Positions 13,263-34,170 of a stretch of DNA of 64,000 bases are shown one piece after another (position 1 is the first letter of the stretch; every line of letters starts with the position of its first letter). The stretch comes from Candidatus Hydrogenedentales bacterium (GTDB taxonomy: Bacteria; Hydrogenedentota; Hydrogenedentia; Hydrogenedentales; SLHB01): NCBI GenBank assembly GCA_050950105.1, contig JBMNGZ010000008.1, positions 22,167 through 86,166 of the forward strand, read 5' to 3'. The notes below the pieces were generated by a model. It was not told where the DNA came from. It did no database searches and saw only the letters and a list, made by a program, of their open reading frames with translations. The position numbers and the translations under genes were made by a program.

Positions 13263-13292
13263 TTGACACTGTTCACGCACGAGGGGTATAGT
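13263..13292 (+). promoter_or_regulatory. putative sigma-70-type promoter upstream of the PilT-family ATPase gene
   Basis: TTGACA (13263-13268), an 18-nt spacer, then TATAGT (13287-13292). The AAGGAGG Shine-Dalgarno sits before ATG 13369. Confidence 0.4.
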
Positions 13293-14877: not shown

Positions 14878-14920
14878 GGCTGAACGGACCGGAGCGATGC
14901 CGGCCGATCGAAAAAAAAGG

Positions 14921-14940
14921 TTATCCACAGGTTTTCCACA
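14921..14940. promoter_or_regulatory. pair of DnaA-box-like 9-mers (TTATCCACA, TTTTCCACA)
   Basis: A perfect consensus DnaA box lies at 14921-14929 and a 1-mismatch box at 14932-14940, in the same orientation, in the 366-bp gap upstream of rsmD-nrdR. Confidence 0.3.
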
Positions 14941-15243
14941 GGGGGATGGCCGCGCGCAAAAACAGACAAACGATAAAATCCTGAAGTCCTTGCCGCGAAT
15001 TTCCCGATTTTGGAAACCGAATACTCTCCAACCCGGTTGTGCTCTGTATCTTGTTGATTGTACGTGGGTTACGCCGTTTTTACAGGCCCGCGCCACCCAC
15101 AAGGAGCAATGTGATAGACAGCGAGGTAGCGTACCCTACATATTCTTGAATTTTCTGCCAGTTACGCCTGCTTTTAGCCAAACTGGCAGAGTTATCCCCA
15201 TCAGTTTCTACACCGCGGCGCCTTGTCGCGAACGGTGTTTTTC

Positions 15244-18781: not shown

Positions 18782-18877
18782 CCGGAGCGGGCGCCGTTCG
18801 CCCCACAATAGCTCCGCCCATGTTTGCTCAGCCGTGGCCGGTGTAGAGGCAGAAAAGATGTCCGCTCGGGCGTCTCG

Positions 18878-19828
18878 TCAGAAGCTGTTTTCTTTTGTAA
18901 AGGCGATGAGTTCGTCCAGGTTTGCGTAGGCCACGGCCAGCACGGTGTCCGCGGCGCCGTAATACAGCCTGAGCTGCCGCTGGCTGTCCACGAGGGCCGC
19001 GCACGGAAATACCACGCTCGGCACGTCGCCCACACGCTCGTAGGGTTCTGTAGGCGCCAGGAGGTAGGTGCGGGTGCGGTAGCGGACCTGCCACGGTTTT
19101 TCCAGGTCGAGAAGTGCCGCGCCCACACTGTAGACAAACCCGGAACAGCTGGTTCGCACACCGTGATAAATCAGCAGCCATCCCTCGTCCGTCTCGATCG
19201 GCACGGGGCCGGCCCCTACCTTCGTGCTCTGCCACCCGCCACGCGGGCCAAACACAAAGCGGTGGCGGCCCCAATGCACGAGATCCGGGCTCGTCGAGTA
19301 AAAGATATCGCCGTACGGCGTATGTCCGAGATCGCTGGGGCGGTGCAGCATGGCGTACATCCCGTCGATCTTTCGTGGGAAGAGGACGCCGTTGCGGTTC
19401 AAATAGGCCACATTCGCATCGATTAGTTCGAAGCGGTGAAAATCCTGAGTTTGGGCCAGGCCGATGGCCGGCGCCTGCCCGCCCTGCGGGGCGTCGGGGT
19501 AATGGCACCAGGTCACGTAGTAGAGGTTGTCAATCCGTGTAATCCGGGGGTCGTACTGGAAGCGGCCGTCGAAGTTTACGTCCGGTCCGTCCAGATCATT
19601 GCGTTCAAACAGAATGGGCGATGCCTCGATCTGCCAGGCCAGCCCGTCATTGCTGAACCCGGCATGCAGCCCGGCCTCCATCCGCTGGGAATCCACCCGG
19701 AACACGCCGGCAAATCCGGTTCCAAATGGTGCCACCGCGCTGTTGAAGATCGAGTTGGCGGTAGGTACTGCCGCGGGGGTGACGATAGGATTGTGCTCGT
19801 AGCGCCGAAACACGGTCTCGTTGGCCAT
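18878..19828 (-). CDS. glycoside hydrolase family 130 protein (beta-mannoside phosphorylase/glycosidase-related, DUF377)
   Basis: A 316-aa 5-bladed beta-propeller-type sequence (YYVTWCHYPD, GMYAMLHRP, DEGWLLIYHGV, LRLYYGAADTVLAVAY) typical of GH130 members. Confidence 0.7.
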   Translation of the reverse strand: MANETVFRRYEHNPIVTPAAVPTANSIFNSAVAPFGTGFAGVFRVDSQRMEAGLHAGFSNDGLAWQIEASPILFERNDLDGPDVNFDGRFQYDPRITRIDNLYYVTWCHYPDAPQGGQAPAIGLAQTQDFHRFELIDANVAYLNRNGVLFPRKIDGMYAMLHRPSDLGHTPYGDIFYSTSPDLVHWGRHRFVFGPRGGWQSTKVGAGPVPIETDEGWLLIYHGVRTSCSGFVYSVGAALLDLEKPWQVRYRTRTYLLAPTEPYERVGDVPSVVFPCAALVDSQRQLRLYYGAADTVLAVAYANLDELIAFTKENSF

Positions 19829-19921
19829 AGAATACTCCTTGACGTGCCCGCATCCCGGATCCGGGTCACTTCAATCGCCCCTTACGCGCTGATACGCGAA
19901 ATTGCTGGGCAGCCGCCCCGG

Positions 19922-21106
19922 CTATTCTGCGTCAGCCGCCGGTTGCGGTTCCAGCGCCGGCGCCTCGGCCGGTGGGTCGGCCGGCGCGATGTCTTTCAGC
20001 GTTACCGTAAAAGTAGAACCTTCGCCGGGTTCGCTGTCCACCTTGACCTTGCCCGCATACAGCAGGGCCAGCTTTTTCACGATCGACAAGCCCAGACCGC
20101 TGCCCAGGATGCCCGAGGTGCTCGAGTTCTTGATCCGCACGAAGTCATTGAACAGTTTCCCCGCTTCGTCTCGGGTCATTCCGATGCCGGTGTCTTTCAC
20201 CGCGATGTGGAGGAGATCCTCGTCACGGGAGAGCGTGACGGCAACGTGTCCATCGTCCTTGTTGTATTTCACGGCGTTCGAGATGAGATTGTTCATGATA
20301 ATCTCAAGTTCGCCCGTGTCCGCCCACAAGAGCATATCGCCCGTTTGATGCAGGTCGATGCTGATCTTTCGGGACTGTGCTTCGGGGAGAAAGGTCTCGA
20401 TCGCGCGCTCCGCCATGCTTCCGGCGTCCACACGTTCCATCTCGCGCCGTTTCTGGCCGGATTCGATGCGCGTCAGGTCCAGCAGGTCGGCAATCATTTT
20501 TCGCATCCCCTGGATCCGGTCCAGGCAGCGAAAAATGACCTGGTTTATGGCCTGTGGATTTTCGCCGAGGGTCCCATCGCGTACGACGTTCAAATAGCCT
20601 TCGATGGCGTTAATCGGCGCTTTGAGTTCATGTGCGAGCACTGAAATGAACTGAAAGCGCACCTGGCGCTTTTCCTGGGCCAGCCGGCGCGCCTGGCGCG
20701 CCACCATCAGGTGCATGGCCGCTTTCGTAACCGTACTTTTCAGTTCCGTCGGAGTGAAGGGTTTTGCCAGAAAATCGTAGGCCCCCTGTTTCGTGGCGCG
20801 CACTGCGGTCTCGATCGACGCGTAGGCCGTGATCATCACGGTCAACGTTTCGATGTCTCGCTTATGCAGCTCCTCCAGCACATCCAGGCCGCTGATGCCG
20901 GGGAGTTTCAGGTCGAGCAGCAGGATCTGGGGCGGCTCCGCTGTAATTTTCTCAAGCGCTTCCTCGCCGGTCTCCGCCAGTTCCACCTGGAACTGCACGG
21001 ACTCGTCCATGTCGGGGATGTCCACGCTGAAATCGCGCAGGGCGCGTGCAACCCCCATGCGCATGCCCATTTCGTCGTCACAAACCAGCAGCTTCAGCGT
21101 TTCCAT
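19922..21106 (-). CDS. hybrid response-regulator/histidine kinase (REC-HisKA-HATPase_c)
   Basis: The start at METLKLLVCDDE (GGGAG Shine-Dalgarno upstream) gives a receiver domain with DDE...D...K positions (LLLDLKLPG). The H-box is LAHELKAPI. The N, G1 and G2 boxes are NLISNAVKYN, DTGIGM and GSGLGLSIV. Confidence 0.75.
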   Translation of the reverse strand: METLKLLVCDDEMGMRMGVARALRDFSVDIPDMDESVQFQVELAETGEEALEKITAEPPQILLLDLKLPGISGLDVLEELHKRDIETLTVMITAYASIETAVRATKQGAYDFLAKPFTPTELKSTVTKAAMHLMVARQARRLAQEKRQVRFQFISVLAHELKAPINAIEGYLNVVRDGTLGENPQAINQVIFRCLDRIQGMRKMIADLLDLTRIESGQKRREMERVDAGSMAERAIETFLPEAQSRKISIDLHQTGDMLLWADTGELEIIMNNLISNAVKYNKDDGHVAVTLSRDEDLLHIAVKDTGIGMTRDEAGKLFNDFVRIKNSSTSGILGSGLGLSIVKKLALLYAGKVKVDSEPGEGSTFTVTLKDIAPADPPAEAPALEPQPAADAE

Positions 21107-21224
21107 AGTACTCCCTTCGGCCGGTGGCGTCGATTGCCCGTCAAGGCCGCGTGGCGCATGGACCGCCACCACATCCAACATCCGCTCTGCTCTGGTACGC
21201 GCCCGATGGCGCCCGGCGGCCAAA

Positions 21225-21617
21225 TCAGCGAATCAGCCGCTCGATTTCGTGTTGCAGTTGTTCAAAACGGACCGGCTTGTCCAGCAGCGCATCGGCTTTG
21301 ACCCAGGCGCGCTCCTCTTCCGTCGCCGCATCGAAGGCCATGCCGGTCTCGTTGGCGACACCCGTGCAGATTACCACAGGACATCCGGGATAGGTCTTTT
21401 TGATCTCCCGGCACAAGGTGAAGCCCGCATCCATTTCTTCCATCATCAGGTCGATCACGGCCATGTCCGGCTGGGTGGAACGCAAGAGATTGCGCGCTGC
21501 GTTCAGGCCTGCTGCGGTAAGCACTTTGTATCCCGCTGCTTCAAGCTGCACTTTCTGCTGAAAGAGAAAGTCTTCGTCGTCATCAACTACCAGGATCATC
21601 TTTTTCTCGTCGCTCAT
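21225..21617 (-). CDS. single-domain response regulator (CheY/Spo0F-like receiver)
   Basis: A 130-aa protein with ILVVDDDEDF, the phospho-acceptor region AVIDLMM, and a conserved K in LLDKP. It has no output domain. Confidence 0.75.
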   Translation of the reverse strand: MSDEKKMILVVDDDEDFLFQQKVQLEAAGYKVLTAAGLNAARNLLRSTQPDMAVIDLMMEEMDAGFTLCREIKKTYPGCPVVICTGVANETGMAFDAATEEERAWVKADALLDKPVRFEQLQHEIERLIR

Positions 21618-21637
21618 TACGCCATCCCATCTATGGG

Positions 21638-21663
21638 AACTGCCGGCTTCGGCGCCGGCAGTT
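21638..21663 (-). other. perfect 10-bp stem / 6-nt loop hairpin between the hydrogenase-kinase gene and the receiver gene
   Basis: AACTGCCGGC-ttcggc-GCCGGCAGTT in the 136-bp gap. No U-tract follows, so it looks like an attenuator or processing hairpin rather than an intrinsic terminator. Confidence 0.3.
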
Positions 21664-21753
21664 TGCCCGTCATTCAGCTCAACGCACCAAACACCTTACG
21701 ATACCGCAATCCAGGTTGGGAATGAAACTTTCGCTCTTTGCCTGCATCGGCGG

Positions 21754-23820
21754 CTACGCGCCCAGCAACTCTTCTTCGCCGCCCAGGCCGATGCTCATCT
21801 CTACGGATTCCGGCTGGCCGGTCTGCCTGTGCCGAGGCAGCGAGATCTTGAATGTTGTGCCTGTCTGCCCCTTGGCCGGGTCTGAATTCGATTCCACGCG
21901 GATGTCTCCATGGTGCATTTTGACGATGCCGTAGGTCACCGCCAAGCCCAATCCTGTGCCAACACCGAGTTGTTTCGTCGTGAAAAAGGGGTCGAAAATC
22001 CGCGAGAGGTTCTCTTTTTTGATGCCCGTGCCTGTATCGACGATCTGCAGCATAATCCGGTCTGCTTCGTCCGTCAGCCGAACCGTCAGCACTCCGCCGT
22101 CGGGCATCGCCGCGAGGGCATTGCCAACCAGATTGGCCAGCACCTGCGTCATTTGATCGCGATCGATATCCGCCATGGGGACGCTCATTTCGTTCTCAAA
22201 CCGGACTCGTACGTTCTCGGGCACCGTGTTCGCTCGGAGCACGTGCTCGAGCATGTCCCCAACGTCGACAGACTCGAAAAGGACCTTGTTCTGTCGCGCA
22301 AAGTGCAAGAGCCCCGCCACGATCTTCTTGCAGCGGTCGGCATGCTCCGAGATCATCTGGAGGTCTTCCAGCATTTGGACATTCCCGCCGAACTCATCCT
22401 TGATGATGTGGGCGTACATCAGCACGATGCCCAGCGGGTTGTTCAATTCGTGTGCGATGCCCGCGGCCAACTGGCCCATGCTCGCCAGCTTTTCCGACTG
22501 CACCAGGGCCGACCGCGCTTCCGCGAGCTGCTCGTTCGACTGATTGAGATCCTGGATGGTCGTCGCCAGCAGCTCGATCGTGTGCGGGAGGCACATCGCG
22601 GTTTCCGCCAGCCCTTTGTAGATCGCAATGGCATGTTCGCGGCAGGTCTCGTATCCGCAGGCGCCGCAATTGAGCTCGTCGCCCGGTAAAAACTTGCCCA
22701 TCCGCTCCATCAGCTCGCGGATCTGACCCTCCGACGGCACCGCGATCCGCTGATCGTCCGGCCGGTACGTCCGGCTCAAGTCCAGCGTGCTGAATTCCTG
22801 CATCGCGTCCGCCCACTCCGCCTCGGCGGCGTTTTTCATGCGGCGGCGCACATACGAGCTTACCCGGCAGCGCCGGACGTATTGCGGGTCCTGGTTCGTC
22901 GTCCCCGGCCCCATGATGCAGCCTTTGCAGGCGAGGGTTTCCAGCAGACGCACCTCAAAAAATCCCGCTGCAAACTCGCTGATCGCTTCAGGAAAATCGA
23001 CGCGACCATCCGCCACCGCCACATTGCCGTCAACGAGGTCCTCGACAATGTTAGCCGCCTGCAGAAGGCCCCGGCTGACCGGGAACAGACCGCCGTAGCG
23101 CGCGTGTGGCGGGTCAAAATTGCTCGCATCGACCGATTCCGGCGTGATGTTTCGCGCCGCCAGCAGCGCCTGCAATTCGGCGAAAGTCAGGACGCTCTGT
23201 ACGTCATCGGGCAGCTCGTCGCTCGCGGCCTCGCCTTTCTTCGCGATGCAGGGGCCGATGAACACAATCTTCAACCCCGGTCCATGCTGCTTATGCAGCA
23301 CGCGCGCCATCGCCACCATCGGCGACACGATGGGCGCCAGCGATGTGACCAAGTCCGGCTGGTAGCGCTGCACGTACGCCACAATGGACGGGCAGGTCGT
23401 TGCCACAAAGCGCTTATCCTGCGTCGTTTCGATCAGCTTTCGGTATTGATCCGCCACAAGATCGGCGCCAAAGGCCACCTCGTGGACATAATCGAAGCCA
23501 AGCGCGCGCAACATGCCCACGACGCGCTCGTACTCGCAATCATCGAATTCCACTGGAAAGCTCGGTGCGAGCAGCGCCGCCACCTTAGCTTCTCCGGCCA
23601 GCAGCGCCTCGACCTCCGCCTTGGAATCCCAGACGCGTTTCGCGCCCTGGCTGCACACGCGAACACAGTTGCCGCAACCAATGCACCGGCTGCAGATCAC
23701 ATCCGCCTGACCGTCCACGATGCGGATGGCTTTCGCGGGACATTCCCGCACGCAGGTGAAACAGACGCGGCACCGTTCTTTAATGGTGGTGACCAGCGGT
23801 ATGTTGGATGCGCTTTTCAT
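21754..23820 (-). CDS. [FeFe]-hydrogenase-like sensory protein: 2x[4Fe-4S] ferredoxin + H-cluster domain + extra Cys motif fused to a HisKA/HATPase_c histidine kinase
   Basis: The N-terminus has CRVCFTCVRECP and CSRCIGCGNCVRVC. The H-domain has L2 (GPCIAKKGE) and L3 (ETLACKGCIMGPG), but L1 reads ATTCPSI instead of TSCCPxW. An extra CGACGYETC...C motif follows. The kinase part has the H-box IAHELNNPLG, N-box LVGNALAAM, and G-boxes DTGTGI and GLGLAV. Confidence 0.7.
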   Translation of the reverse strand: MKSASNIPLVTTIKERCRVCFTCVRECPAKAIRIVDGQADVICSRCIGCGNCVRVCSQGAKRVWDSKAEVEALLAGEAKVAALLAPSFPVEFDDCEYERVVGMLRALGFDYVHEVAFGADLVADQYRKLIETTQDKRFVATTCPSIVAYVQRYQPDLVTSLAPIVSPMVAMARVLHKQHGPGLKIVFIGPCIAKKGEAASDELPDDVQSVLTFAELQALLAARNITPESVDASNFDPPHARYGGLFPVSRGLLQAANIVEDLVDGNVAVADGRVDFPEAISEFAAGFFEVRLLETLACKGCIMGPGTTNQDPQYVRRCRVSSYVRRRMKNAAEAEWADAMQEFSTLDLSRTYRPDDQRIAVPSEGQIRELMERMGKFLPGDELNCGACGYETCREHAIAIYKGLAETAMCLPHTIELLATTIQDLNQSNEQLAEARSALVQSEKLASMGQLAAGIAHELNNPLGIVLMYAHIIKDEFGGNVQMLEDLQMISEHADRCKKIVAGLLHFARQNKVLFESVDVGDMLEHVLRANTVPENVRVRFENEMSVPMADIDRDQMTQVLANLVGNALAAMPDGGVLTVRLTDEADRIMLQIVDTGTGIKKENLSRIFDPFFTTKQLGVGTGLGLAVTYGIVKMHHGDIRVESNSDPAKGQTGTTFKISLPRHRQTGQPESVEMSIGLGGEEELLGA

Positions 23821-23828
23821 ACTTGACC

Positions 23829-25550
23829 TCAGATCATAACCTCGCGTTTGGCGTAGTGTGTGTGGAGCAGTTGGTGGCTCTTTTCGCCGAGCGGCTCGCC
23901 CAGAAACTCTTCGTAGAGCCGTTGGATCGCCGGATTTCCGTGCGAGGTGCGCACGGGCTCGTCCCGGTCGATCGTATACAGCGCCTGCATCCGCGCCCGG
24001 ATGGCGTCCGGGTCTGCGTTGAGCGGTTGCCCGCCGCCCGCGATGCAGCCGCCGGGGCAGGTCATCACTTCGATGAAATGAATGTCGTCGCGCCCGTTGC
24101 GAATTTCTTCCAGCAAGAGCCGCGCGTTCTGCAGGCCACTGACTACCGCTACGCCAATCGGGATGCCGTTAATCTCAAGTTTGGCCTCTTTGCGCCCCTC
24201 GAACCCTCGGATCGCTTCCACTTTGAGGCCGGGCAGTTCCTCGCCGGTCAGCAGGTAGTGTGCCGTGCGGATCGCCGCTTCCATCACCCCGCCGCTCGCG
24301 CCGAAAATCTTGCCCGCCGTGCTGCGCTCGCCAAACGGCGTATCGGCGTGTTCGGGGGCCAGCGATTGCATGTCCATGCCGCGCATGCGTATGACCCGCG
24401 CCAGTTCCCGCGTGGTCAGGACCGCGTCGACATCGGGCCTGCCGTCCCGGGAATGTTCCGGCCGTCCCGCTTCGAATTTCTTGGCCACACAGGGCATGAT
24501 CGCCACACTGAAGATATCCTCTGGAGCGATACCTTCCCGCTCCGCGAAAAACGACTTGATCACCGCTCCCATCATCTGCTGCGGGCTCTTGCAGGTCGAG
24601 AGGTTGTCGATCATTTCCGGGTAGAACTCTTCCACAAATTTGATCCAGCCCGGCGAACAACTGGTCATCATGGGAAGTTTTCCGCCGGTGCGGATGCGAT
24701 GAGCCAGTTCCGAGGCCTCTTCCATGATCGTCAGGTCCGCCGAAAACGACGTGTCGAACACCTGGTCAAAACCGAGTCTGCGCAACGCCGCCACCAGCAT
24801 GCCGTCTACGTCCGCGCCCGGTTTCAGACCGAATTCCTCGCCCAGGGTCACCGACACGCTCGGCGCGTGCTGCACCACCACGAGCTTCGTGGGGTCTGCG
24901 ATGGCATTCAGCACTTCCTTGATATAACTCTGCTCGCGCAGCGCGCCTGTCGGGCACACCATGATGCACTGGCCGCAGTTGATGCAGCTCGAAACGTTGA
25001 GCCCTTCGCTGAACGCCGTTCCGATCACGGTCTGGCTGCCGCGGCCCACAAAATCGATGGCCGAGACTCCCTGCACTTCCTCACACACGCGCACGCATTT
25101 CCCGCAGAGGATGCATTTGGCGGGCTCGCGTACGATGGCGGGGTTCGACGAATCCACATGGTATTCATTCTTGCCGCCCGAGTAGCGCCGTTCACGCACG
25201 CCCAGCTCATTGGCCAGACCCTGCAGGTCGCAATGGCCGCTGCGCACGCAATACAGGCAATCGTCGGGGTGGTTCGCGAGCAGCAGCTCGATGATCGTCT
25301 TGCGCGCTCGCAACGCCCGGGGCGAATGCGTCTGGACCCGCATCCCGTCCCGTACCGGGTAGGCGCAGCTCGGCACCAGCGCCCGCTCGCCCTCCACCTC
25401 AACCGCGCACATGCGGCAGGCGCCCGTCGGGAACAGGTTGTCCATGTTACACAAGGTCGGCACCGTAATGCCGTTCCGTTTCAGCGCATCCAGCAGCATC
25501 TCGCCGCTTTTCGCCTCAATCTTCCGGTTATTGACTTCGATGCTAAGCAT
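23829..25550 (-). CDS. hydA: [FeFe]-hydrogenase catalytic subunit HydA (NuoG-like N-terminal FeS domains + H-cluster domain)
   Basis: The start is at MLSIEVNN (GAGGAA Shine-Dalgarno; the upstream in-frame ATG at 25577 overlaps the hydB stop region). It has a 2Fe-2S site (CNMDNLFPTGACRMC), a His-ligated cluster (HPDDCLYCVRSGHC) and 2x CxxCxxCxxxCP motifs. H-cluster motifs L2 (MPCVAKKFE) and L3 (EVMTCPGGCIAGGGQP) are canonical, while L1 is MMTSCSPGW (a Ser where the second Cys is expected). Confidence 0.85.
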   Translation of the reverse strand: MLSIEVNNRKIEAKSGEMLLDALKRNGITVPTLCNMDNLFPTGACRMCAVEVEGERALVPSCAYPVRDGMRVQTHSPRALRARKTIIELLLANHPDDCLYCVRSGHCDLQGLANELGVRERRYSGGKNEYHVDSSNPAIVREPAKCILCGKCVRVCEEVQGVSAIDFVGRGSQTVIGTAFSEGLNVSSCINCGQCIMVCPTGALREQSYIKEVLNAIADPTKLVVVQHAPSVSVTLGEEFGLKPGADVDGMLVAALRRLGFDQVFDTSFSADLTIMEEASELAHRIRTGGKLPMMTSCSPGWIKFVEEFYPEMIDNLSTCKSPQQMMGAVIKSFFAEREGIAPEDIFSVAIMPCVAKKFEAGRPEHSRDGRPDVDAVLTTRELARVIRMRGMDMQSLAPEHADTPFGERSTAGKIFGASGGVMEAAIRTAHYLLTGEELPGLKVEAIRGFEGRKEAKLEINGIPIGVAVVSGLQNARLLLEEIRNGRDDIHFIEVMTCPGGCIAGGGQPLNADPDAIRARMQALYTIDRDEPVRTSHGNPAIQRLYEEFLGEPLGEKSHQLLHTHYAKREVMI

Positions 25551-25580
25551 TGCCGTTCCTCGTTCGAGCGCGTCCACGCG

Positions 25581-27656
25581 CTATTGTTTGCCCATGCGGT
25601 AAAGCGCCGCGCCTTCATGCCAGTCTTCGAAAGCGTCCGATGCAAACACGCTCAAGGCCTGCTCACTCTCGCGGCGTTCACGGTCGATCTCTTCCGCGCC
25701 CGGAATCCGAAGCCGTGCGGCGTGTATCGGGCACACGTCCACACAGGTCCCGCAACCGATGCACTTGTCCTCAATGATGTAATGCACTTTTTTCGGCACG
25801 CCCACGATCGCCCCGTCCACGGGGCAACGCTGCGCGCAGAGGGTGCAGCCGTCGCACAATTCCACGTCGATCTCGAAGGAGCGCAGCTCCTGGCAGACCC
25901 CCGCGGGGCAGCGCCGCTCGTAGATGTGGGCCTCATATTCGTCGCGGAACCAGTGCAGTGTGCTCAATACCGGGTTCGGGGCCGTCTGGCCCAGGCCGCA
26001 GAGGCTCGTGTCGCGAATGACCTCGGCCGTCCGATTGAGCATCATGACGCCTTTGAAGCGTTCGAGCGCCTGGAATTTCGATTCGCTTTTGCGGCCCCGC
26101 GTGATGCGTTCGAGTATCTGGAGCATACGCAGCGTGCCTTCCCGGCAGGGGATGCATTTTCCGCAGCTTTCCCGCTGGATGAACTCCATGAAGAACTTGG
26201 CCACGTCGACCATGCACGTGTCTTCGTCCATCACGACCAGGCCGCCGGAACCCATCATCGCGCCCACGGTCTTCAGCGATTCGTAATCGATGGCGATGTC
26301 CAGATGCTGGTCGGGGATGCACCCGCCGGAGGGACCGCCGATCTGCACCGCCTTGAATTTCTTTCCGCCCGGGATCCCGCCGCCGATATCAAACAAGACC
26401 TGGCGCAGCCGGGTGCCCATCGCCACTTCGACCAGGCCGGTCAGCGCGATCTTGCCGGAGAGCGCAAACACCTTGGTGCCTTTGCTCGTCTCCGTGCCTA
26501 TCGCCGCGAACGCTTCCGCTCCTTTTTCCGCAATCCGCGGGACATTCGCCAGGGTCTCCACGTTGTTGATGATCGTCGGTTTATCAAAGAGGCCCCGGAC
26601 GGCCGGAAACGGCGGGCGGGGACGAGGCATGCCCCGTTTCCCTTCGATGCTGTTGATCAATGCGGTCTCTTCGCCGCATACGAAGGCGCCCGCGCCCATC
26701 TTGATCACGATCTCGAGGCTGAACCCGCTGTCCTGAACGTTGTCGCCGAGGAAACCGCAGTCTTTCGCCTCGGCAATGGCGTGCTGGAGCCGTTTGATGG
26801 CCAGCGGATACTCGGCCCGGATATAAATGTAAGCCTTGCTTGCGCCGATGGCGTACGCCGCAATGGCCATGCCTTCCAAGAGCCGGTGCGGGTCGCCTTC
26901 AATCACCGCCCGGTCCATGAACGCACCCGGATCGCCTTCGTCCGCGTTGCAGACCAGATACTTGCGGTCGCTGGTCGTGCTCAGCGCGAATTTCCATTTT
27001 TTGCCCGCTGGAAACCCGCCGCCGCCCCGGCCGCGCAGCCCGCTCTGTTCAACCAGGTCGCAGACCTCGGCCGGCGTCATGGTATGAATGACTTTCGTCA
27101 GAGCCCGGTAGCCGCCGCTCGCGACATATTCTCCCAGACTCGATGGATTGATGATCCCGCAGTTCTTCAGCACCCAGCGCGTCTGCGGCGCGAAGAAAGG
27201 ATGTTCCGAAAGCCGGTCAACGTTATGCCAGGGCGCCACGCCCGGCGTGGTGAACTGGCCCAATACCATGTCCGTGGGGATCGTCTCCGACAGCACGCTT
27301 TCCAGTAAAGGCTTGACCTTGTCTTCCGTCACGTGTTTGAACGAGACGCGCGGCTTGCCCGGCAGCTGAATGTCCACCAGGGGCTCTTCGGCGCACAACC
27401 CGATGCACCCCACTTCGACAATCTCGGCGTCAATGTTGCGCAGGCGCAAGAACGCCCGGATCGCATTGAGCGACTTGCCTGCGCCCGCGCCCAGGCCACA
27501 GGTGCCCGCGCCCACGTAGATCGTCGGGCGCTCCGTCCGTTCGCGGCGCAGCAGCCGCAGTTGTTCTTCATAGTCCGCACGCACGGCCTCATCGAGGTCC
27601 GGCGTGAGACCGCATGCATAGTTTAATAAACCGTTCAGGCTGGCCGGCGGTTTCAT
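25581..27656 (-). CDS. hydB: NADH-binding hydrogenase subunit HydB (NuoF-like flavoprotein with thioredoxin-like [2Fe-2S] and C-terminal 2x[4Fe-4S])
   Basis: The start at ATG 27656 is preceded by AAGGAAA, which overlaps the hydC stop. It has the NADH/FMN motifs GRGGGGFPAGKKW and ESCGKCIPCREG, and the C-terminal clusters CDGCTLCAQRCP and CIGCGTCVDVCP. Confidence 0.9.
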   Translation of the reverse strand: MKPPASLNGLLNYACGLTPDLDEAVRADYEEQLRLLRRERTERPTIYVGAGTCGLGAGAGKSLNAIRAFLRLRNIDAEIVEVGCIGLCAEEPLVDIQLPGKPRVSFKHVTEDKVKPLLESVLSETIPTDMVLGQFTTPGVAPWHNVDRLSEHPFFAPQTRWVLKNCGIINPSSLGEYVASGGYRALTKVIHTMTPAEVCDLVEQSGLRGRGGGGFPAGKKWKFALSTTSDRKYLVCNADEGDPGAFMDRAVIEGDPHRLLEGMAIAAYAIGASKAYIYIRAEYPLAIKRLQHAIAEAKDCGFLGDNVQDSGFSLEIVIKMGAGAFVCGEETALINSIEGKRGMPRPRPPFPAVRGLFDKPTIINNVETLANVPRIAEKGAEAFAAIGTETSKGTKVFALSGKIALTGLVEVAMGTRLRQVLFDIGGGIPGGKKFKAVQIGGPSGGCIPDQHLDIAIDYESLKTVGAMMGSGGLVVMDEDTCMVDVAKFFMEFIQRESCGKCIPCREGTLRMLQILERITRGRKSESKFQALERFKGVMMLNRTAEVIRDTSLCGLGQTAPNPVLSTLHWFRDEYEAHIYERRCPAGVCQELRSFEIDVELCDGCTLCAQRCPVDGAIVGVPKKVHYIIEDKCIGCGTCVDVCPIHAARLRIPGAEEIDRERRESEQALSVFASDAFEDWHEGAALYRMGKQ

Positions 27657-27669
27657 CGCTGTGGTTTCC

Positions 27670-28170
27670 TTATTCATCGGTTTCGACCTCTTCGCGGAGT
27701 TCATCCAAAATGTCACGGACCTTTTGAGGGGTCAGATTTGCGTAAAACTCGCCGTTGATGCTGATCACGGGCGCCAGACCGCAGGCGCCGATGCATGCCA
27801 CAACTTCCAGGCTGAACAGGCCGTCGCGCGTCGTTTTGCCGGGTTCAAGCGCCAGATCCTGCCGGATCGCGTCCAGGACCCCCAGCGAGCCCTTTACGTG
27901 GCACGCCGTGCCACGGCAGACTTGAATGTGATAACGCCCGAGCGGCTGAAAACGGAACTGGTTATAGAAGGTCGCCACACCGTAGATCTTGCTTGCCGGA
28001 AGCTGAAGATGTTCGCCGATACGCGCGATCGCTTCCCGTGACAGGTAGCCGTGTGTCTCCTGAACGTCCTGAAGCAGGGGGATCAGGGCATCTCGCCCCG
28101 CACCCGCGTGCCGCTCAAGAATCTCCCCAATATCCGGCTGCACGGCCGGCTGTCCCGTAATGGTGCTCAT
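27670..28170 (-). CDS. hydC: hydrogenase [2Fe-2S] subunit HydC (NuoE-like)
   Basis: Shows CRGTACHVKGS...CIGACGLAPV, a thioredoxin-like 2Fe-2S ferredoxin signature. It overlaps the rex stop by 4 nt. Confidence 0.85.
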   Translation of the reverse strand: MSTITGQPAVQPDIGEILERHAGAGRDALIPLLQDVQETHGYLSREAIARIGEHLQLPASKIYGVATFYNQFRFQPLGRYHIQVCRGTACHVKGSLGVLDAIRQDLALEPGKTTRDGLFSLEVVACIGACGLAPVISINGEFYANLTPQKVRDILDELREEVETDE

Positions 28171-28805
28171 GACATGGTTTCCTTCTGCGACGCCCGAAGG
28201 CCCGCAAAAAACGCGACCTTCTCCAGCGCCATACTCAAATCCAGGTTCTCAATGTATACATGCGGCGGAACCCAGAGGTGCGTGGGGGCAAAATTCAGCA
28301 GGCCCGACACCCCCGCACGGCAAAGACGCCGCGCGGTGTCCTGGGCCACGGCCGACGGCACTGCGATGATGCCCACCCGGATCCCTTCCGATTCCACAAC
28401 CTCTTCCAACTGCGGCATCGGATAACACCGGCACCCGTGAATCACCCGGTTCACTTTCGTCTTGTCGTTGTCGAAAGCCGCGACCAGAGGGATACGCGGA
28501 TTGCGCCGCGGCGAAAACGCCATCAGCGCGCGACCCAGGTTGCCGATGCCCACCAACGCCACTTTCTGCGCGTCGGAATGAAACAAAAAGTCGTTGATGC
28601 TTCCCGCCAGAGCCGCTACGTCGTAGCCGCGAACCGGGCTCCCGGTGTAGCCCGTGGCCATCACGTCCCGACGGACCTGCGCCGCCGTGCATCCCGACCG
28701 CGCGGCCAGCTCATGTGAAAACACATGCTGCTGCCCGGCGTCCTGCATCGCCAGCAGGACCCGCCGGTACACACTGAGCCGGGCCACGGTTTTATCGGAA
28801 ATCAC
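28167..28805 (-). CDS. rex: redox-sensing transcriptional repressor Rex
   Basis: The N-terminal winged helix (TVARLSVYRRVLL) and a Rossmann-type NADH-binding domain (VALVGIGNLGRALM) are present. I place the start at GTG 28805 (GAGGAA Shine-Dalgarno 5 nt upstream) rather than ATG 28844, because ATG 28844 lies inside a Rex operator. Confidence 0.8.
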   Translation of the reverse strand: MISDKTVARLSVYRRVLLAMQDAGQQHVFSHELAARSGCTAAQVRRDVMATGYTGSPVRGYDVAALAGSINDFLFHSDAQKVALVGIGNLGRALMAFSPRRNPRIPLVAAFDNDKTKVNRVIHGCRCYPMPQLEEVVESEGIRVGIIAVPSAVAQDTARRLCRAGVSGLLNFAPTHLWVPPHVYIENLDLSMALEKVAFFAGLRASQKETMS

Positions 28806-28833
28806 GGCAATTCCTCGCGGTTTACGGTAGAAC

Positions 28834-28866
28834 TGTGAAGACATTCACGCTGTGATTCGTTTCACA
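28834..28866. promoter_or_regulatory. two tandem Rex operator sites (TGTGAAGACATTCACG and TGTGATTCGTTTCACA)
   Basis: Both match the TTGTGAA-N4-TTCACAA Rex consensus (the second with one mismatch). They are separated by 1 nt and sit 30-60 nt upstream of the proposed rex GTG start, at the head of the rex-hydCBA-sensor operon. Confidence 0.6.
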
Positions 28867-29100
28867 GGGACTATACCACCCGAAGTGGCCTCATGTCAAG
28901 AGAAATCGTGATGCTTTATCACGATTCGACGGCTGCCTCTACGCGCTTACGGCCCTTCGATATAAGGGAGGCTTGCACTTCCGTTGCAGATCGTGCATGC
29001 TGAATCCTGCGCGAATAGCGCATCCGCGGGTTAAATGCGTGTTGATCTGCGTCTTTTTTGGGGCTCTGAGGCGCTGTGCCGGCCAAATGGAGGAGAAACC

Positions 29101-30420
29101 GTGCGTATTTTCACGATTAGCGTGTCTGTCCTGGGAGTGCTTTCCGCCGTGGTGGCCTGGTCCGCGGAGCTGGAATTCGCGGGCAACTGGGCGAATGAGG
29201 CGGCGGTGGCGGAGCTGGCCGCCGGCACCCGTACGGAGGCCAATGCCGCCTGGTGGGGATTTGACCCCGAGGATGCGACCGCCGCCGTGCAGGCCGCGAT
29301 CGATTCCAATGCCCCGCGCGTCCGCATCCCGTACCTGGGCCGCCCCTGGATCGTCACGCCCATCCGCCTTCGGGGCAACCTGGAACTGCATTTCGAGCCG
29401 GGTGTGGTGGTTCTCGCAAAAGGAGGCCAGTTCAAAGGCAAGAGCGACAGCCTCTTCACCGCGGCGAACGCGGCCAACATTACGTTGCGCGGATACGGGG
29501 CGACCTTGCGTATGCCCAAAGCCGATTACCAGAGCGATGCCTATGAAAAGGCCGAATGGCGGATGAGCCTTGCTTTTCGCGGCTGCCGGAACATCCGGGT
29601 CGAGGGCCTTCGTCTTGAAGGCAGCGGGGGAGACGGCATCTACCTGGGGGCGACCCAGGAGCTTGCCTGGTGCGAGGATGTCGTCGTTCGCGACGTGATC
29701 TGCCACGACCATCACCGCCAGGGCATCAGCGTCATCGGAGCGGTGAATCTGCTTATCGAGAATACCGTGATGACCGATACCCGCGGGACAGCCCCCGCTG
29801 CGGGCATCGATTTCGAGCCCAACCATCCCCGCGAAAAGCTGGTCAACTGCCTGGTACGGAATTGTGTTTTCTCCGGCAATCAGGGCGCCGGTATACTCCT
29901 GTATCTCAAAAATCTCGACGCCAACAGCAGCCCTGTGTCTCTGACCTTTGAGGATTGCTACATCGGCGCCGGCAACAGTTCCGGTATCACGATAGGCGCA
30001 GTAAACGATCAGGGACCCGGCGGGCATGTCGAGTTCCGCAATTGCGCCGTCGAAGGCTCGCTCCGGCACGGCCTGCGCATTTACGACAAGGCCGCGTCAA
30101 GCGTGGGGGTCCACTTCATGAACTGCCATTGGAGTGCTTCCTGGTCGCAGGCTCCCAAACAGACCGATGCCCCCCGGTCTCCCCTGGAGATCGAGCTTCG
30201 CCGGCAGGAGATCACCCGCGAGCAAGGCGGCGTGACCTTTGATGCCTGCTATGTCTATGACAGCGTCGACCAGCCCGTGCTTGCCATCCGTGAAAACGAG
30301 ACTGAATTCGGCGCGCGCCATGTGTCCGGCACGCTGTTTGTTGCCTCTCCCCATGCCCCGCGCATGGATCCCGGACCCAACCCGAAAGGCGTGAACGTCG
30401 AGCTAATCCAGATCCCCTGA
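29101..30420 (+). CDS. secreted right-handed parallel beta-helix repeat protein (pectate-lyase-fold; putative glycan-active enzyme)
   Basis: The GTG start at 29101 is preceded by GGAGGAG and followed by a signal peptide (RIFTISVSVLGVLSAVVAWSAE). Repeated NxxxxN/GxGIxL-type beta-helix rungs appear (NCVFSGNQGAGILLY, GAGNSSGITIGA). Confidence 0.5.
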   Translation: MRIFTISVSVLGVLSAVVAWSAELEFAGNWANEAAVAELAAGTRTEANAAWWGFDPEDATAAVQAAIDSNAPRVRIPYLGRPWIVTPIRLRGNLELHFEPGVVVLAKGGQFKGKSDSLFTAANAANITLRGYGATLRMPKADYQSDAYEKAEWRMSLAFRGCRNIRVEGLRLEGSGGDGIYLGATQELAWCEDVVVRDVICHDHHRQGISVIGAVNLLIENTVMTDTRGTAPAAGIDFEPNHPREKLVNCLVRNCVFSGNQGAGILLYLKNLDANSSPVSLTFEDCYIGAGNSSGITIGAVNDQGPGGHVEFRNCAVEGSLRHGLRIYDKAASSVGVHFMNCHWSASWSQAPKQTDAPRSPLEIELRRQEITREQGGVTFDACYVYDSVDQPVLAIRENETEFGARHVSGTLFVASPHAPRMDPGPNPKGVNVELIQIP

Positions 30421-30649
30421 CGTTCCGGATCCAGGCGCACCTGGCCCGGGCGAAGCGGTGAGAGACCGAGTTGCCGGGTGTCGGGTTTGCATATGACAGG
30501 CACGAAGCACATATACTAATATTCTGCAAGACGCAGTAGAGTTCATGAAGTGCCTGCAACCGGCCGTATTCATTTCTGTCTGGTTGCGCGCCGTGCGCCA
30601 AAAAAGTGGCAGGAATTCCCTGTTTGGTCCGGCATGCGGAGGAAAATGA

Positions 30650-31402
30650 GTGATTCATGCAGGTGACGGACTGACGCCGAAACAGCGCGAGATCCGGGAG
30701 CGGGAGGAACAGATTCTTGAGACCGCCCGCCAGATGTTTTTCGAAAAGGGATACTACAACCTGACCATGGGCAAAATTGCCAAGCGGGTCAACTGTGCCA
30801 AAGGCACCGTATATCTTCATTTTCCAAGCAAGGAAGACATCATCGTCGCGCTGGCCGAACGGGCGCACGAACGGCGCTATGCCATGCTCCAGCGCGCCAT
30901 GGGGTTCCAGGGATACAACCGGGAACGTCTGCTGGCGTTCTGCCTGGCGGGCGAGTATTACGCGCGTCTCAACCCGGGCGACATGCAGATCATGAAGACC
31001 ATCACCCGTTCGTTCCGCGAAAAGATCTCGGCCGAGCGGGCAGCCTGCTTTGAAAAACTGGAGCAACGCATTATCAATTATCTGATGCGCATGGTGCATC
31101 AGGCCGTGACCGACGGAGATCTGGTGCTCCGCCCAGGCAGCACGGTGGGTAGAATCGTATGGGCCTTGTGGGCCCTGGCGGAGGGCGGCTACGGCATCGT
31201 TCTCAGCGGCGTGTCTCTGGAAGCCCTCGGCATCGAAGATCCCTGGGGGATGATCGCATCGTTTGCGGGAAAAATGGCGGACAGCCTGGGATGGAAACCG
31301 CTGTCTTCCGAATGGGATTACGATGCGTCCATTAAACGCATCCAGCGGGAGGTGTTCGCCGACGAGGCCCGGCAACTTGGGGAATTTCCTGGTGACGCCT
31401 AG
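30650..31402 (+). CDS. TetR/AcrR-family transcriptional regulator
   Basis: Shows the N-terminal HTH (LTMGKIAKRVNCAKGTVYLHFPSKEDI) and an all-helical C-terminal ligand domain. The GTG start follows GGAGGA. Confidence 0.7.
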   Translation: MIHAGDGLTPKQREIREREEQILETARQMFFEKGYYNLTMGKIAKRVNCAKGTVYLHFPSKEDIIVALAERAHERRYAMLQRAMGFQGYNRERLLAFCLAGEYYARLNPGDMQIMKTITRSFREKISAERAACFEKLEQRIINYLMRMVHQAVTDGDLVLRPGSTVGRIVWALWALAEGGYGIVLSGVSLEALGIEDPWGMIASFAGKMADSLGWKPLSSEWDYDASIKRIQREVFADEARQLGEFPGDA

Positions 31403-31501
31403 AGCACTGCCGGGATGACCGGCCCCATTCACGGCGCATGGCCTCCGCCTTGCAGTTCCGTGGGCTCCTCTCCTACCATGGCGGGGGAGGACTACGCCGT
31501 T

Positions 31502-32959
31502 ATGAATCAGCCGCGAAGAGACCCGAGGACAACCGTTAGCCGGCGCCATTTTCTGGCGGGCACGGCGGCCGGCGTTGCGCTGGCCCATACCGCGCGCCCG
31601 GGCACCGACTCTCCGGTATCGAAGCCCAACGTCGTTTTCGTTTTTGCTGACCAGTGGCGCGCCCAGGCCACCCCTTTCAACAACGACCCGAATGTGCAGG
31701 CTCCGTACCTCGCCCGGCTGGCCGCCGAAAGCGTGAACTTCACCCGCGCCGTGTCGGGCTGCCCCGTCTGCACGCCGTACCGCGCCAGTCTGATGACCGG
31801 CCAGACGCCCCTGACCAACGGCGTGTTCATGAACGACGTGCCCTTACCCGACCAGGCCGTCACCATCGGGAAAGTGTTCAAAAACGCCGGTTATGATACG
31901 GCCTATATCGGCAAATGGCATCTCGACGGACGCGGCCGTTCGAGCTATATCCCTCCGGAACGCCGACAGGGATGGGACTACTGGAAGGTGCTCGAATGCA
32001 CCCACGACTACAATCATTCCGCCTACTATGCCGATGAAGACGAGAAACTGCAGTGGGACGGATACGACGCCCTTGCCCAGACCCGCGACGCCCAGCAGTA
32101 CATTCACGCGCATGCGCGGACAGAGAAACCGTTCGTGCTCTTTCTCTCCTGGGGACCACCCCACGCGCCCTACCAGACGGCCCCGGAGCCCTACCGTCAG
32201 CGATTCCGTCCCGAAGACCTCGTGCTGAGGCCCAATGTATCGCCAGAGGCGCAGGAACAAGCCCGCAGCGACCTCGCCGGATACTACGCGCACATCGCCG
32301 CGCTCGACGACTGCCTGGCCGCGCTCGATCAAACCCTCGCCGAGGCCGGCATTGCCGAGAACACCGTCTTTGTGTTCACCTCCGACCACGGCGATATGCT
32401 GGGCTGCCAAGGCCGCTGGAAGAAGCAGTGGCCTTTCGAGGAATCGATTCGTGTGCCCTTCCTGCTGCGGTATCCCGCCGCGTTCGGGCGGCTGGGCCGC
32501 CAGCTGGATGCCCCGATCGATGCACCCGATATCATGCCCACCCTGCTCGGCCTCTGCGGCATTCCCGTGCCCGAGAGCGTCGAAGGGCTTGATTTCTCCG
32601 GGTACATCGGCGGCGGACCCAATCCCGGCGACGGAACCGCCATCATCATGTGTCCTCAGCCGTTCGGGCAGGTCTCGCGCAAACACGGCGGCCGTGAATA
32701 CCGCGGCATCGTTGACGGCCAATACAGCTACGTGCGCGATCTCAACGGTCCCTGGCTCCTCTACGACAACGCAAGCGACCCCTATCAGCTCCAGAATCGC
32801 TGCAACGACTCCGAGATGGCGGAGATCCAGGCGAAGCTGGACGCGCAGTTGTCCGCCCGCCTCGCGCAACGCAACGACGAGTTCCTCCCCGGCCGCGCCT
32901 ACATCGAACGGTTCGGCTACACGGTCGATGACACGGAGACGGTGCCCTACAAGCCTTGA
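31502..32959 (+). CDS. sulfatase (formylglycine-dependent arylsulfatase family), TAT-secreted
   Basis: Shows a twin-arginine signal (SRRHFLAGTAAGVALA), the sulfatase signature C-x-P-x-R (CTPYRASLMTG), and GKWHL and DHGD motifs. Confidence 0.8.
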   Translation: MNQPRRDPRTTVSRRHFLAGTAAGVALAHTARPGTDSPVSKPNVVFVFADQWRAQATPFNNDPNVQAPYLARLAAESVNFTRAVSGCPVCTPYRASLMTGQTPLTNGVFMNDVPLPDQAVTIGKVFKNAGYDTAYIGKWHLDGRGRSSYIPPERRQGWDYWKVLECTHDYNHSAYYADEDEKLQWDGYDALAQTRDAQQYIHAHARTEKPFVLFLSWGPPHAPYQTAPEPYRQRFRPEDLVLRPNVSPEAQEQARSDLAGYYAHIAALDDCLAALDQTLAEAGIAENTVFVFTSDHGDMLGCQGRWKKQWPFEESIRVPFLLRYPAAFGRLGRQLDAPIDAPDIMPTLLGLCGIPVPESVEGLDFSGYIGGGPNPGDGTAIIMCPQPFGQVSRKHGGREYRGIVDGQYSYVRDLNGPWLLYDNASDPYQLQNRCNDSEMAEIQAKLDAQLSARLAQRNDEFLPGRAYIERFGYTVDDTETVPYKP

Positions 32960-33099
32960 GGCCCGGCGCCACCGTCGACAGCCTGTCGTTCCGTCCGTTG
33001 AGTGTCGTCCGTTGAGCTGCCCAGGGAGTCTGTTCGTGCTATCATGCGCGGCGGCGCGACCGGCAACAGGACGCGCATGAGATACAGGGGAGACGCGCC

Positions 33100-34170
33100 A
33101 TGTTCAACGGCCTTGGAATGCATCTGGGTAACCTGTCGCGCCTGTCAAACGCGAAGACACGATCGATCTCGGCGGAAAACTTTGATGGCGCGAAAGGCCG
33201 CGGCGGCATGGCCACCGACGGCACGTGCGCCCAATGCGCGCGCGACCTCGGCCAGGGCTGGAAGATCTCGCCGTCGGTCTGCATCGAACCGGGGCAGACC
33301 TTCGAGCTTGCCAGCATCGACGGCCCGGGAGCGATCCAGCAGATCTGGATGACGCCCACCGGCAACTGGCGCTTCAGCATCCTGCGCGTCTATTGGGACG
33401 GCGAGGACCTCCCCAGCATCGAAACGCCCGTCGGCGACTTTTTCTGCATGGGCTGGGGCGAATACACCCACGTGAACTCCCTGCCGGTCTGCGTCAATCC
33501 CGGCAGCGCGTTCAACTGCTATTGGGAAATGCCTTTCCGCAAACACTGCCGCATGACGTTTGAGAATATCGGCGACGAGCCCATGATCCTGTTCTATCAG
33601 ATCAACTACACCCTCACCAGCGTGCCCGACGACTGCGCCTACCTTCATGCCCAATTCCGCCGGACCAATCCGCTCCCGTACAAAGAGAACTACACCATCG
33701 CCGACGGCATCCGCGGGCACGGCCAGTACGTCGGCACCTACCTCGCCTGGCAAGTCAATAACACCGGCTGGTGGGGAGAGGGCGAGATCAAGTTTTTTCT
33801 AGACGGCGACGGGGAGTTTCCTACGATCTGCGGCACGGGCACGGAAGATTACTTCTGCGGCTCCTACAACTTCGACCGAAACGGCCACTATACGGAATTC
33901 AGCACCGCCTATGCCGGGTTGCCCCAGGTCATCCGTCCTGACGGCGCCTATCGTTCCCAGCAACGCTTCGGCCTCTATCGCTGGCACCTTATGGACCCGA
34001 TCCGCTTTGAACAGGACCTGCGGGTGACCATCCAGGCCCTGGGCTGGCGGAGCGGCGGACGTTACCTGCCCCTCCAGGACGACATCGCGTCGGTTGCATT
34101 TTGGTACCAGGCCGAGCCGCACGCGCCGTTCCCCAGTCTTCCTGGAAGAGATGAACTCGAAGTGATCTGA
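33100..34170 (+). CDS. DUF2961-family protein (glycoside hydrolase family 172-like)
   Basis: A 356-aa protein with a GTGTEDYFCGSYNFD motif and a jelly-roll-like composition I associate with DUF2961/GH172 members. Confidence 0.55.
   Translation: MFNGLGMHLGNLSRLSNAKTRSISAENFDGAKGRGGMATDGTCAQCARDLGQGWKISPSVCIEPGQTFELASIDGPGAIQQIWMTPTGNWRFSILRVYWDGEDLPSIETPVGDFFCMGWGEYTHVNSLPVCVNPGSAFNCYWEMPFRKHCRMTFENIGDEPMILFYQINYTLTSVPDDCAYLHAQFRRTNPLPYKENYTIADGIRGHGQYVGTYLAWQVNNTGWWGEGEIKFFLDGDGEFPTICGTGTEDYFCGSYNFDRNGHYTEFSTAYAGLPQVIRPDGAYRSQQRFGLYRWHLMDPIRFEQDLRVTIQALGWRSGGRYLPLQDDIASVAFWYQAEPHAPFPSLPGRDELEVI

Follow-up and report, generated by a model that had tools for sequence, protein, structure and literature searches.

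The 64,000-nucleotide stretch analysed here (the window; positions 22,167 to 86,166 of contig JBMNGZ010000008.1, forward strand, from a Candidatus Hydrogenedentales bacterium) carries on its minus strand an operon that begins with a gene for the NADH-responsive repressor Rex and continues with the genes hydC, hydB and hydA of an [FeFe] hydrogenase and with hydS, which encodes a hydrogenase-like histidine kinase. Two 16-bp boxes, A and B, lie one base apart at the head of this operon. We consider it most probable that they are Rex operators, through which the rex-hydCBA-hydS operon would be autoregulated. The same reading had been put forward in a preliminary description of this DNA, and the sequence analysis bears it out: a true Rex gene lies below the boxes, the boxes overlap the promoter, they are conserved, and their 17-bp layout recurs in other lineages.

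Two adjoining probable Rex boxes at the head of the operon

On the plus strand the boxes read TGTGAAGACATTCACG (28834-28849) and TGTGATTCGTTTCACA (28851-28866), with the single base 28850 in between. On the coding strand, box A (28851-28866) is TGTGAAACGAATCACA and box B (28834-28849) is CGTGAATGTCTTCACA. Two 16-mers at these coordinates, one base apart and fitting the Rex consensus, had been named in the preliminary description, and all of this holds. Each box carries one mismatch over the 12 specified positions of TGTGAA-N4-TTCACA (11/12 match), and when the window was scanned for this core with up to two mismatches, boxes A and B were the sole matches. The chance estimates for the core use the composition of the window (62% G+C). 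On this basis, the expected number of matches per 64 kb with no more than one mismatch is 0.045 by analytical calculation and 0.033 by first-order Markov simulation, and two of them together occurred in 0 of 300 simulations. The pair is therefore too rare to be accidental, and we rejected a chance origin.

We also looked for further Rex sites. Matches with three mismatches were found 17 times elsewhere in the window, which is the level of shuffled sequence (13 expected). A position weight matrix of the clade, which gives box A 19.3 bits and box B 19.9 bits, detected no other site of at least 12 bits in the 64 kb. Additional Rex sites in the window were rejected on these two grounds. The outer T and A of the longer consensus TTGTGAA-N4-TTCACAA are not kept in the window (box A has C and G at these places); the related loci L003 and L005 have TTGTGAA.

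The protein encoded below the boxes

The gene directly below the boxes (rex, 28167-28805, minus strand) encodes a protein of 212 amino acids with a GTG start, which by its sequence and its modelled fold is a true Rex. Pfam assigned a winged-helix domain to residues 2-47 (PF06971) and a Rossmann domain to residues 79-174 (PF02629), and the solved Rex proteins in the PDB were all matched, with E values from 4e-30 to 6e-22. The motifs GIGNLG and AAFD (the FD motif) align with 5zz5 and 2vt2, and these columns are invariant in the clade. Thus, the features of the Rex family were found together, namely an N-terminal winged helix-turn-helix, a Rossmann domain with GxGxxG and an acidic residue after strand 2. 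The AlphaFold model has a pLDDT of 90.7 and ends in a helix (residues 190-211) like that of domain-swapped Rex dimers. A Foldseek search with this model returned 7wb3, 3ket, 3ikt and 3wgg, including DNA complexes, at TM scores of 0.85-0.91.

Rex proteins of the hydrogenase-linked clade share a near-invariant H-G-C-R-C-Y at residues 123-128 (window 28422-28439), where solved Rex proteins have GLTVSD or GVPVYN. C125 and C127 are located in a predicted beta-strand at the surface (125-129) with a pLDDT above 90. The motif occurs in almost all loci whose Rex is at least 47% identical and is absent at 41% identity or less. To judge from the sequence, it could be a metal site or a thiol switch. A link between this CxC motif and the tandem operator was discarded: their co-occurrence mirrors the phylogeny that both follow and is hence no independent evidence.

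Promoter, leader and start codon of rex

A promoter scan placed a -35 hexamer TTGACA at 28894-28899 and, after an 18-nt spacer, an extended -10 element TGgTATAGT at 28870-28878, both on the minus strand. With a score of 11/12 and a TG before the -10, this sigma-70-type promoter is the best in the region, and its -10 element does not vary among six Hydrogenedentota sequences. On both strands of the 64 kb the scan found just two matches scoring 11/12 or more, against 0.13 expected, and the rex promoter alone carries the TG. The preliminary description had not mentioned this promoter. Box A begins 3 nt past the -10. Transcription is predicted to start near 28863, 7 nt after the -10, so that box A would extend from about -3 to +13 and box B from about +15 to +30. 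This placement over the predicted start is the classic one for repressors that prevent open-complex formation and promoter escape.

From the predicted start, a leader of about 58 nt runs through a Shine-Dalgarno sequence GAGGAA (28811-28816, minus strand) to the GTG at 28805-28803, 5 nt further on. In the ORF list, rex begins earlier, with an ATG at 28844-28842 on the minus strand, inside box B. The preliminary description had noticed this overlap, which we confirm, and had argued that the GTG at 28805 with its GAGGAA is the true start. Several results support this. Position 2 of the Pfam winged-helix profile PF06971 is aligned to residue 2 of the GTG-start protein, and the GTG and the GAGG core are invariant in the alignment with five Hydrogenedentota relatives. 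The ATG within the box, which we take to be non-functional, is absent in L003 (AATCCC) and L005 (AATATC). Finally, the NCBI protein that is 100% identical to the rex product (P0001, named 'Rex') has 212 amino acids. The description had erred in calling the ATG annotated: it is merely the first start after a stop in a mechanical list of open reading frames. The correction to GTG is right, yet the public record already has it.

Two observations on rex gene calls in relatives were made alongside. In L019, the public call (10001-10696; P0041, 231 amino acids) begins inside box A of that locus (9996-10011; double operator 9996-10028), and the true start of P0041 is probably about 60 nt downstream of the called one. 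L020 (8116-8799 and 9238-9876) and L043 contain two tandem rex paralogues; the promoter and the double operator are present only at the copy directly upstream of hydC, whose public gene call (164 amino acids) is truncated at the N-terminus.

Conservation of the probable double operator

A genome scan with the single Rex protein yielded five useful close relatives and eight distant Rex loci without boxes or hydC. A metagenome scan with an alignment as query added 80 loci, on which the spacing statistics are based. In the five Hydrogenedentota loci, whose Rex proteins are 80-97% identical, the full order from rex to the last gene, REC-HK, is kept. This order, rex-hydC-hydB-hydA-hydS::HK-REC-REC::HK (HK, histidine kinase; REC, response-regulator receiver domain), is common to Hydrogenedentota and distant lineages. 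At loci with a Rex of 53-67% identity, including one metagenome-assembled genome (MAG) of the Planctomycetota, the cassette is rex-hydC-hydB-hydA-hydS::HK-REC(-REC)-REC::HK, sometimes extended by radical-SAM maturase genes. All these distant loci have a TTGACA-type promoter, a strong box, one base and a second box.

Among the six Hydrogenedentota sequences, conservation of the intergenic region collapses upstream of 28925. The conserved blocks downstream of this position are a palindrome, the -35, the -10, box A, box B, the ribosome site and the GTG. The boxes of the close relatives share fixed half-sites and differ in their central four to six bases (ATGTCT, ATCCCT, TGTGCT, ATATCT). Fixed half-sites around a varying centre are, at the level of sequence, the pattern expected of a protein-binding site.

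To avoid circularity, the spacing of the boxes was scored by the literature half-site TGTGAA only. The sample comprised 38 non-redundant loci in which Rex is less than 79% identical and one site reaches 10/12 or more; a second site was accepted from 8/12 upwards. The second box lay at +17 bp in 27 of these loci and at -17 in three (30/38 in all), whereas each of the 58 other offsets between 16 and 45 bp was occupied by one locus at most. From 35 unique composite sites we derived the consensus TGTGAA-N4-wTCACA-g-CGTkA-N5-TTCACA, in which box A is the strong box and box B follows CGTkA-N5-TTCACA. Nearly all related loci have TTGAC(A/T/G) as -35 hexamer, and box A mostly starts 26-27 nt after it. 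L019 has the weak half on the opposite side, and in L026 the weak box precedes the strong one; such exchanges are what a symmetric dimer site allows. As judged by these alignments, the two-box layout is conserved across phyla. Since the 17-bp spacing and the layout recur across lineages, the two-box design appears to be evolutionarily maintained in this Rex clade and is not a peculiarity of the window.

In L014 (9690-9705), and also in L015, there is an extra near-perfect Rex box, TTGTGAATTAATTCACGA, 247 bp upstream of box A and right after the end of the preceding gene.

An upstream palindrome and alternative explanations

The conserved palindrome upstream of the promoter, O-up (28905-28925, minus strand; ATCGTGAT-AAAGC-ATCACGAT), ends 5 nt before the -35 and is centred at about -52. 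Its half-sites (CGTGA/TCACG) are Rex-like and identical to the left half of box B, and they are set one base wider than in any Rex box (6+5+6). O-up, which the preliminary description does not mention, is the sole perfect match in the window, and no second copy was found in the 64 kb. L001-L003, L005 and L014 retain the palindrome, always equally far from the -35, despite a differing upstream neighbour gene. In L004 and L016 its place is occupied by a 16-mer of canonical Rex spacing (CGTTAAAAAAATCACG and TGAGAAAAAATTCACG, respectively), 55 bp upstream of box A. According to an enrichment scan, O-up is restricted to the Hydrogenedentota group and a few others. By arithmetic, its centre lies 73.5 bp from box B, or about seven helical turns.

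The core TGTGA-N6-TCACA, which fits both boxes as well as the Rex core does, is also the consensus of the CRP type. Hence, the boxes might be sites of a CRP/FNR-family protein, and the operon might answer to cAMP or another CRP-type signal. We give this explanation hardly any credence. The boxes accompany a rex gene in cis across phyla, and position 6 is A in 31 of the 35 copies of box A, as in the Rex half-site TGTGAA. Box B often has a GTTA half-site, which is not CRP-like; it is a documented Rex variant and matches the half-site of the Rex motif of Thermoanaerobacter ethanolicus, ATTGTTA-N6-TAACAAT (PMC5886521). Moreover, the sites are located on and downstream of the predicted start (-3 to +30), in the place of a repressor and not in that of a class I or II activator (about -41.5 and -61.5), and none of the genes checked around the locus belongs to the CRP family. 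It is also highly improbable that box A alone is a Rex operator and that box B, together with the junction ACA-G-CGT, is an element of the initial transcribed region, acting in the 5' untranslated RNA, or the site of a second protein. Such a division would account for the systematic weakness of box B, which starts with C instead of T in 25 of 35 loci, and for a spacer base that is G in 23 of 35, a conservation beyond the needs of a Rex half-site; both boxes also lie inside the predicted transcript. But box B retains half-sites of the Rex type, spaced as in a Rex box; L019 and L026 have their weak and strong halves or boxes exchanged, as a symmetric dimer site would lead one to expect; and box B of the window is as strong as box A (19.9 vs 19.3 bits). 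Furthermore, box B is mostly not self-complementary (CGTTA vs TCACA), so that no conserved RNA hairpin is possible, and no Rfam family matches over the boxes. We regard an RNA-level explanation of box B as unlikely on these last two grounds. The Rfam search covered 19700-29200 with E values up to 1, where nothing except a chance 'Histone3' match appeared, and the whole window at the gathering score, where no match was obtained; tRNAs were not found either.

For O-up itself, the odds between an auxiliary Rex operator and a site of another factor are near even as far as the sequence can tell. A regulator other than Rex, for instance an activator that contacts RNA polymerase from about -52, is a possibility that we take seriously without considering it the probable one. 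It could be the terminal response regulator of the HydS phosphorelay, and the promoter would then integrate H2 and NADH. The wider spacing of the half-sites, retained in the window and in L001-L003, L005 and L014, speaks for such a regulator, as does a placement just upstream of the -35 that is typical for activators; in addition, a DNA-binding domain is missing from the operon's REC proteins, and an output regulator must therefore exist elsewhere. On the other hand, the half-sites are those of the left half of box B, a canonical Rex-spaced 16-mer stands at the same place in L004 and L016, the window contains neither a candidate regulator nor a second copy of the motif, and O-up is lineage-restricted. 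For boxes A and B we retain the reading as Rex operators, and some points weigh against it. The ambiguity of their core with respect to CRP was mentioned above. About one in five related loci has a weak or degenerate box B. With a third conserved palindrome of non-canonical spacing, the control region is not fully accounted for by two Rex dimers. And the conserved 136-nt spacer between hydS::HK and REC may hold a promoter of its own, so that REC and REC-HK may escape the rex promoter.

Organization of the operon

All genes of the operon lie on the minus strand. hydC (27670-28170) encodes a NuoE-like [2Fe-2S] subunit (PF01257, E 4e-52) and overlaps the stop of rex by 4 nt. hydB (25581-27716) encodes the NuoF-like FMN/NADH subunit, with the Pfam domains Complex1_51K, NADH_4Fe-4S and Fer4. 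Its best PDB matches, HydB of Acetobacterium woodii and Thermoanaerobacter kivui (7q4v and 8a6t, E about 1e-200), begin at query residues 63-97, and the true start of hydB is probably downstream of the listed GTG. hydA (23829-25577) encodes the catalytic subunit of an [FeFe] hydrogenase of the bifurcating type, with Fe_hyd_lg_C, Fe_hyd_SSU and N-terminal FeS domains. Its best PDB match is 8a6t, 'Electron bifurcating hydrogenase subunit HydA1' (E 2e-194); 7q4v was matched with E 1.5e-172. By its domains, the adjacency of its genes and these PDB matches, HydABC is assigned to the trimeric group A3 type, and its bifurcating activity is presumed. The H-cluster motif L1 of HydA is TSCSPGW (window 24648-24668, residues about 304-310), as in HydA1 of A. 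woodii (7q4v). T. kivui (8a6t) and CpI read TSCCP, and by alignment HydA of the window has Ser at the second Cys position.

hydS::HK (21754-23820) encodes a hydrogenase domain of the sensory type fused to a histidine kinase. Its product contains two [4Fe-4S] motifs (Fer4), an H-cluster domain (Fe_hyd_lg_C) and the FeS motif PF04060, followed by HisKA and HATPase_c. Putative sensory [FeFe] hydrogenases are marked by the lack of the proton-relay Cys and by a Cx2Cx4Cx16C motif (PMC8163306). Both marks were found: ATTCP is aligned with TSC(C/S)P, which puts Thr at the proton-relay Cys position, and the motif is present as CGACGYETC-x16-C. The protein is thus a putative sensory [FeFe] hydrogenase, presumably of group C, linked to a histidine kinase. 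Two genes follow, one for a single-domain response regulator (REC only, PF00072; 21225-21617) and one for a hybrid REC-HisKA-HATPase kinase identified by Pfam (REC-HK, 19922-21223), whose start is uncertain, since relatives align from residues 18-36.

The preliminary description had these genes joined by overlaps or short gaps. For most of them this is correct: besides the 4-nt overlap of rex and hydC, the gaps are 3 nt between hydB and hydA, 8 nt between hydA and hydS and, by the limits of the open reading frames, 1 nt between REC and REC-HK. It does not apply to the 136 nt (21618-21753, minus strand) that separate the end of hydS::HK at 21754 from the start of REC at 21617. This spacer is conserved in the alignment of the close relatives. 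It contains a weak promoter-like pair (TTTCAT, 21727-21722, and TATCGT, 21703-21698), a hairpin CTGCCGGC-GCCGAA-GCCGGCAG (21661-21640), two pairs of which show compensatory GC to AU changes in relatives, and a palindrome TCCCAT-AG-ATGGGA (21639-21625) over the ribosome site of REC. Its structure z-score is -2.1, and no Rfam match was found in it. Distant lineages do not have the spacer; there, REC abuts or overlaps hydS::HK.

No convincing intrinsic terminator was found between the genes of the operon. The first five genes very likely form one transcript. REC and REC-HK are probably co-transcribed with them and may be additionally controlled. Among the neighbouring genes checked, none encodes a DNA-binding response regulator. 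The proposal that an NADH sensor, a bifurcating hydrogenase and a putative H2 sensor are tied into one unit gains support from the synteny across phyla.

Proposed mechanism

The mechanism proposed here follows the established behaviour of Rex, as known from published structures and biochemistry related to the PDB entries and from electrophoretic mobility shift assays (EMSA) in Caldicellulosiruptor bescii (PMC6391272). Rex binding to the boxes, its response to NADH, the cooperativity of the dimers and the extent of the transcript are inferences. In this mechanism, a strong sigma-70-type promoter would drive the rex-hydCBA-hydS operon. At a low NADH/NAD+ ratio, one Rex dimer would occupy each box, and the pair would prevent both the formation of the open complex and promoter escape. 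A rise of NADH would lead Rex to bind it, close and leave the DNA. Derepression would then allow transcription of rex, of the NADH- and ferredoxin-dependent (bifurcating/confurcating) [FeFe] hydrogenase HydABC and of the hydrogenase-like histidine kinase. HydABC would re-oxidise NADH, together with reduced ferredoxin, by producing H2, and newly made Rex would shut the promoter again, which constitutes a negative feedback. The HydS kinase, REC and the REC kinase would form a separate H2-responsive phosphorelay whose output is not encoded in the neighbourhood.

Joint action of the two dimers is suggested by the strict 17-bp spacing; they could cooperate or form a more extended roadblock, and this would provide tight repression and a sharp switch. 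A more far-reaching and rather unlikely idea is that hydrogenase-linked Rex is a dimer of dimers on a fixed 33-bp operator (16+1+16) and works as an ultrasensitive NADH switch. In that case, H-G-C-R-C-Y could mediate the contact between the dimers or add an O2, redox or metal input, and O-up could let Rex loop the promoter or let the H2 phosphorelay act there. If true, a single control region with these add-on inputs would integrate NADH, H2 and possibly oxidant signals.

Genomic surroundings

The neighbours of the operon (16478-19828 and 29101-34170) are a gene for the anaerobic ribonucleotide reductase NrdD (16478-18781) and genes of polysaccharide degradation, encoding GH130, a beta-helix protein, a sulfatase and DUF2961. 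A GH130 gene follows REC-HK in three of the five close relatives too. The secreted beta-helix protein is encoded divergently from rex, with a probable GTG start at 29101 and GGAGGAGA, and its leader contains a terminator-like hairpin with a T-run (29025-29051, plus strand). The other promoter match of at least 11/12 (TTGACA-18-TATAGT, 13263-13292, plus strand) is located upstream of an open reading frame for a PilT/PilB-like ATPase of 502 amino acids (13369-14877). A Rex-like string with three mismatches at 13262 overlaps the -35 of this promoter; it is at chance level, and we dismissed it as unsupported. An open reading frame of 1166 amino acids antisense to hydA and hydB (23808-27308, plus strand) is almost certainly an artefact of high G+C content, and the same applies to 28939-30069 and 13546-15102 (both minus strand).

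Significance and comparison with known systems

From the locus one obtains a clean and testable model of how hydrogen metabolism may be regulated in Hydrogenedentota and in uncultured anaerobes related to them: the NADH/NAD+ ratio would gate both a putative H2 sensor and the enzyme by which the cell gets rid of reducing power in the form of H2. As a compact and portable part, the conserved 33-bp double operator could help to predict Rex regulons in MAGs, to test whether Rex dimers cooperate and to correct rex starts that were called inside the operator, as in L019. The current picture of Rex and of hydrogenase regulation is unchanged; redox control of this kind is expected and will not surprise a specialist.

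Autoregulation by Rex/ROP was reportedly first described by Brekasis and Paget in 2003 for rex-hemACD of Streptomyces coelicolor. In that system, rex is likewise the first gene of its operon, the promoter contains a TGTGAA-N4-TTCACA repeat, and NADH releases the repressor; it reportedly has a single operator and genes of haem synthesis, whereas here two abutting operators precede hydrogenase and sensor genes in another phylum.

The sensory part of the operon resembles HydS. HydS genes (groups C/D) adjoin those of trimeric bifurcating HydABC (PMC8163306; PMC10084766 citing Zheng 2014 and Greening 2019), and Rex and HydS were proposed to control bifurcating hydrogenases jointly in Ruminococcus albus and Solidesulfovibrio (PMC10084766). 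The likeness consists in the H-domain without the proton-relay Cys, the two N-terminal [4Fe-4S] motifs, the C-terminal Cx2Cx4Cx16C and the co-located group A enzyme. Characterised HydS proteins have a PAS domain or no signalling domain, whereas the H-domain of the present protein continues directly into HisKA and HATPase, and genes for REC and the REC kinase come next. A gene set that is essentially identical was reported for Elusimicrobia of lineage V, in which a group C hydrogenase fused to a histidine-kinase ATPase domain lies beside a trimeric group A hydrogenase and Rex (10.1101/765248); that report concerns another phylum and describes gene content, without analysis of operators, promoters or start codons.

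Rex autoregulation, Rex control of [FeFe] hydrogenases and clusters of Rex with HydS kinases are thus already published; for Firmicutes, autoregulation and the repression of [FeFe]-hydrogenase genes by Rex have experimental proof (PMC6391272). The phased double operator with its conservation across phyla is possibly undescribed so far: we found no description of an abutting, fixed-phase Rex double operator, or of Rex in Hydrogenedentes, in a literature search whose coverage did not include the key comparative survey, so that this is absence of evidence only. In C. bescii and C. saccharolyticus, Rex binds upstream of the [FeFe]-hydrogenase structural genes, of hydG and of its own gene, as seen by EMSA, with the consensus TTGTGAANNNNTTCACAA (PMC6391272). 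That regulon belongs to a Firmicute and was described without a fixed-phase double operator, and in our case rex itself opens the hydrogenase operon. Two Rex sites in one promoter are known from Staphylococcus aureus Pldh1, where two shifted species were seen in EMSA (PMC3544828), and were predicted for T. saccharolyticus adhE (PMC5886521). There, a promoter-distal and a promoter-proximal site are tens of bp apart, whereas the boxes described here are separated by 1 bp and lie 17 bp from centre to centre.

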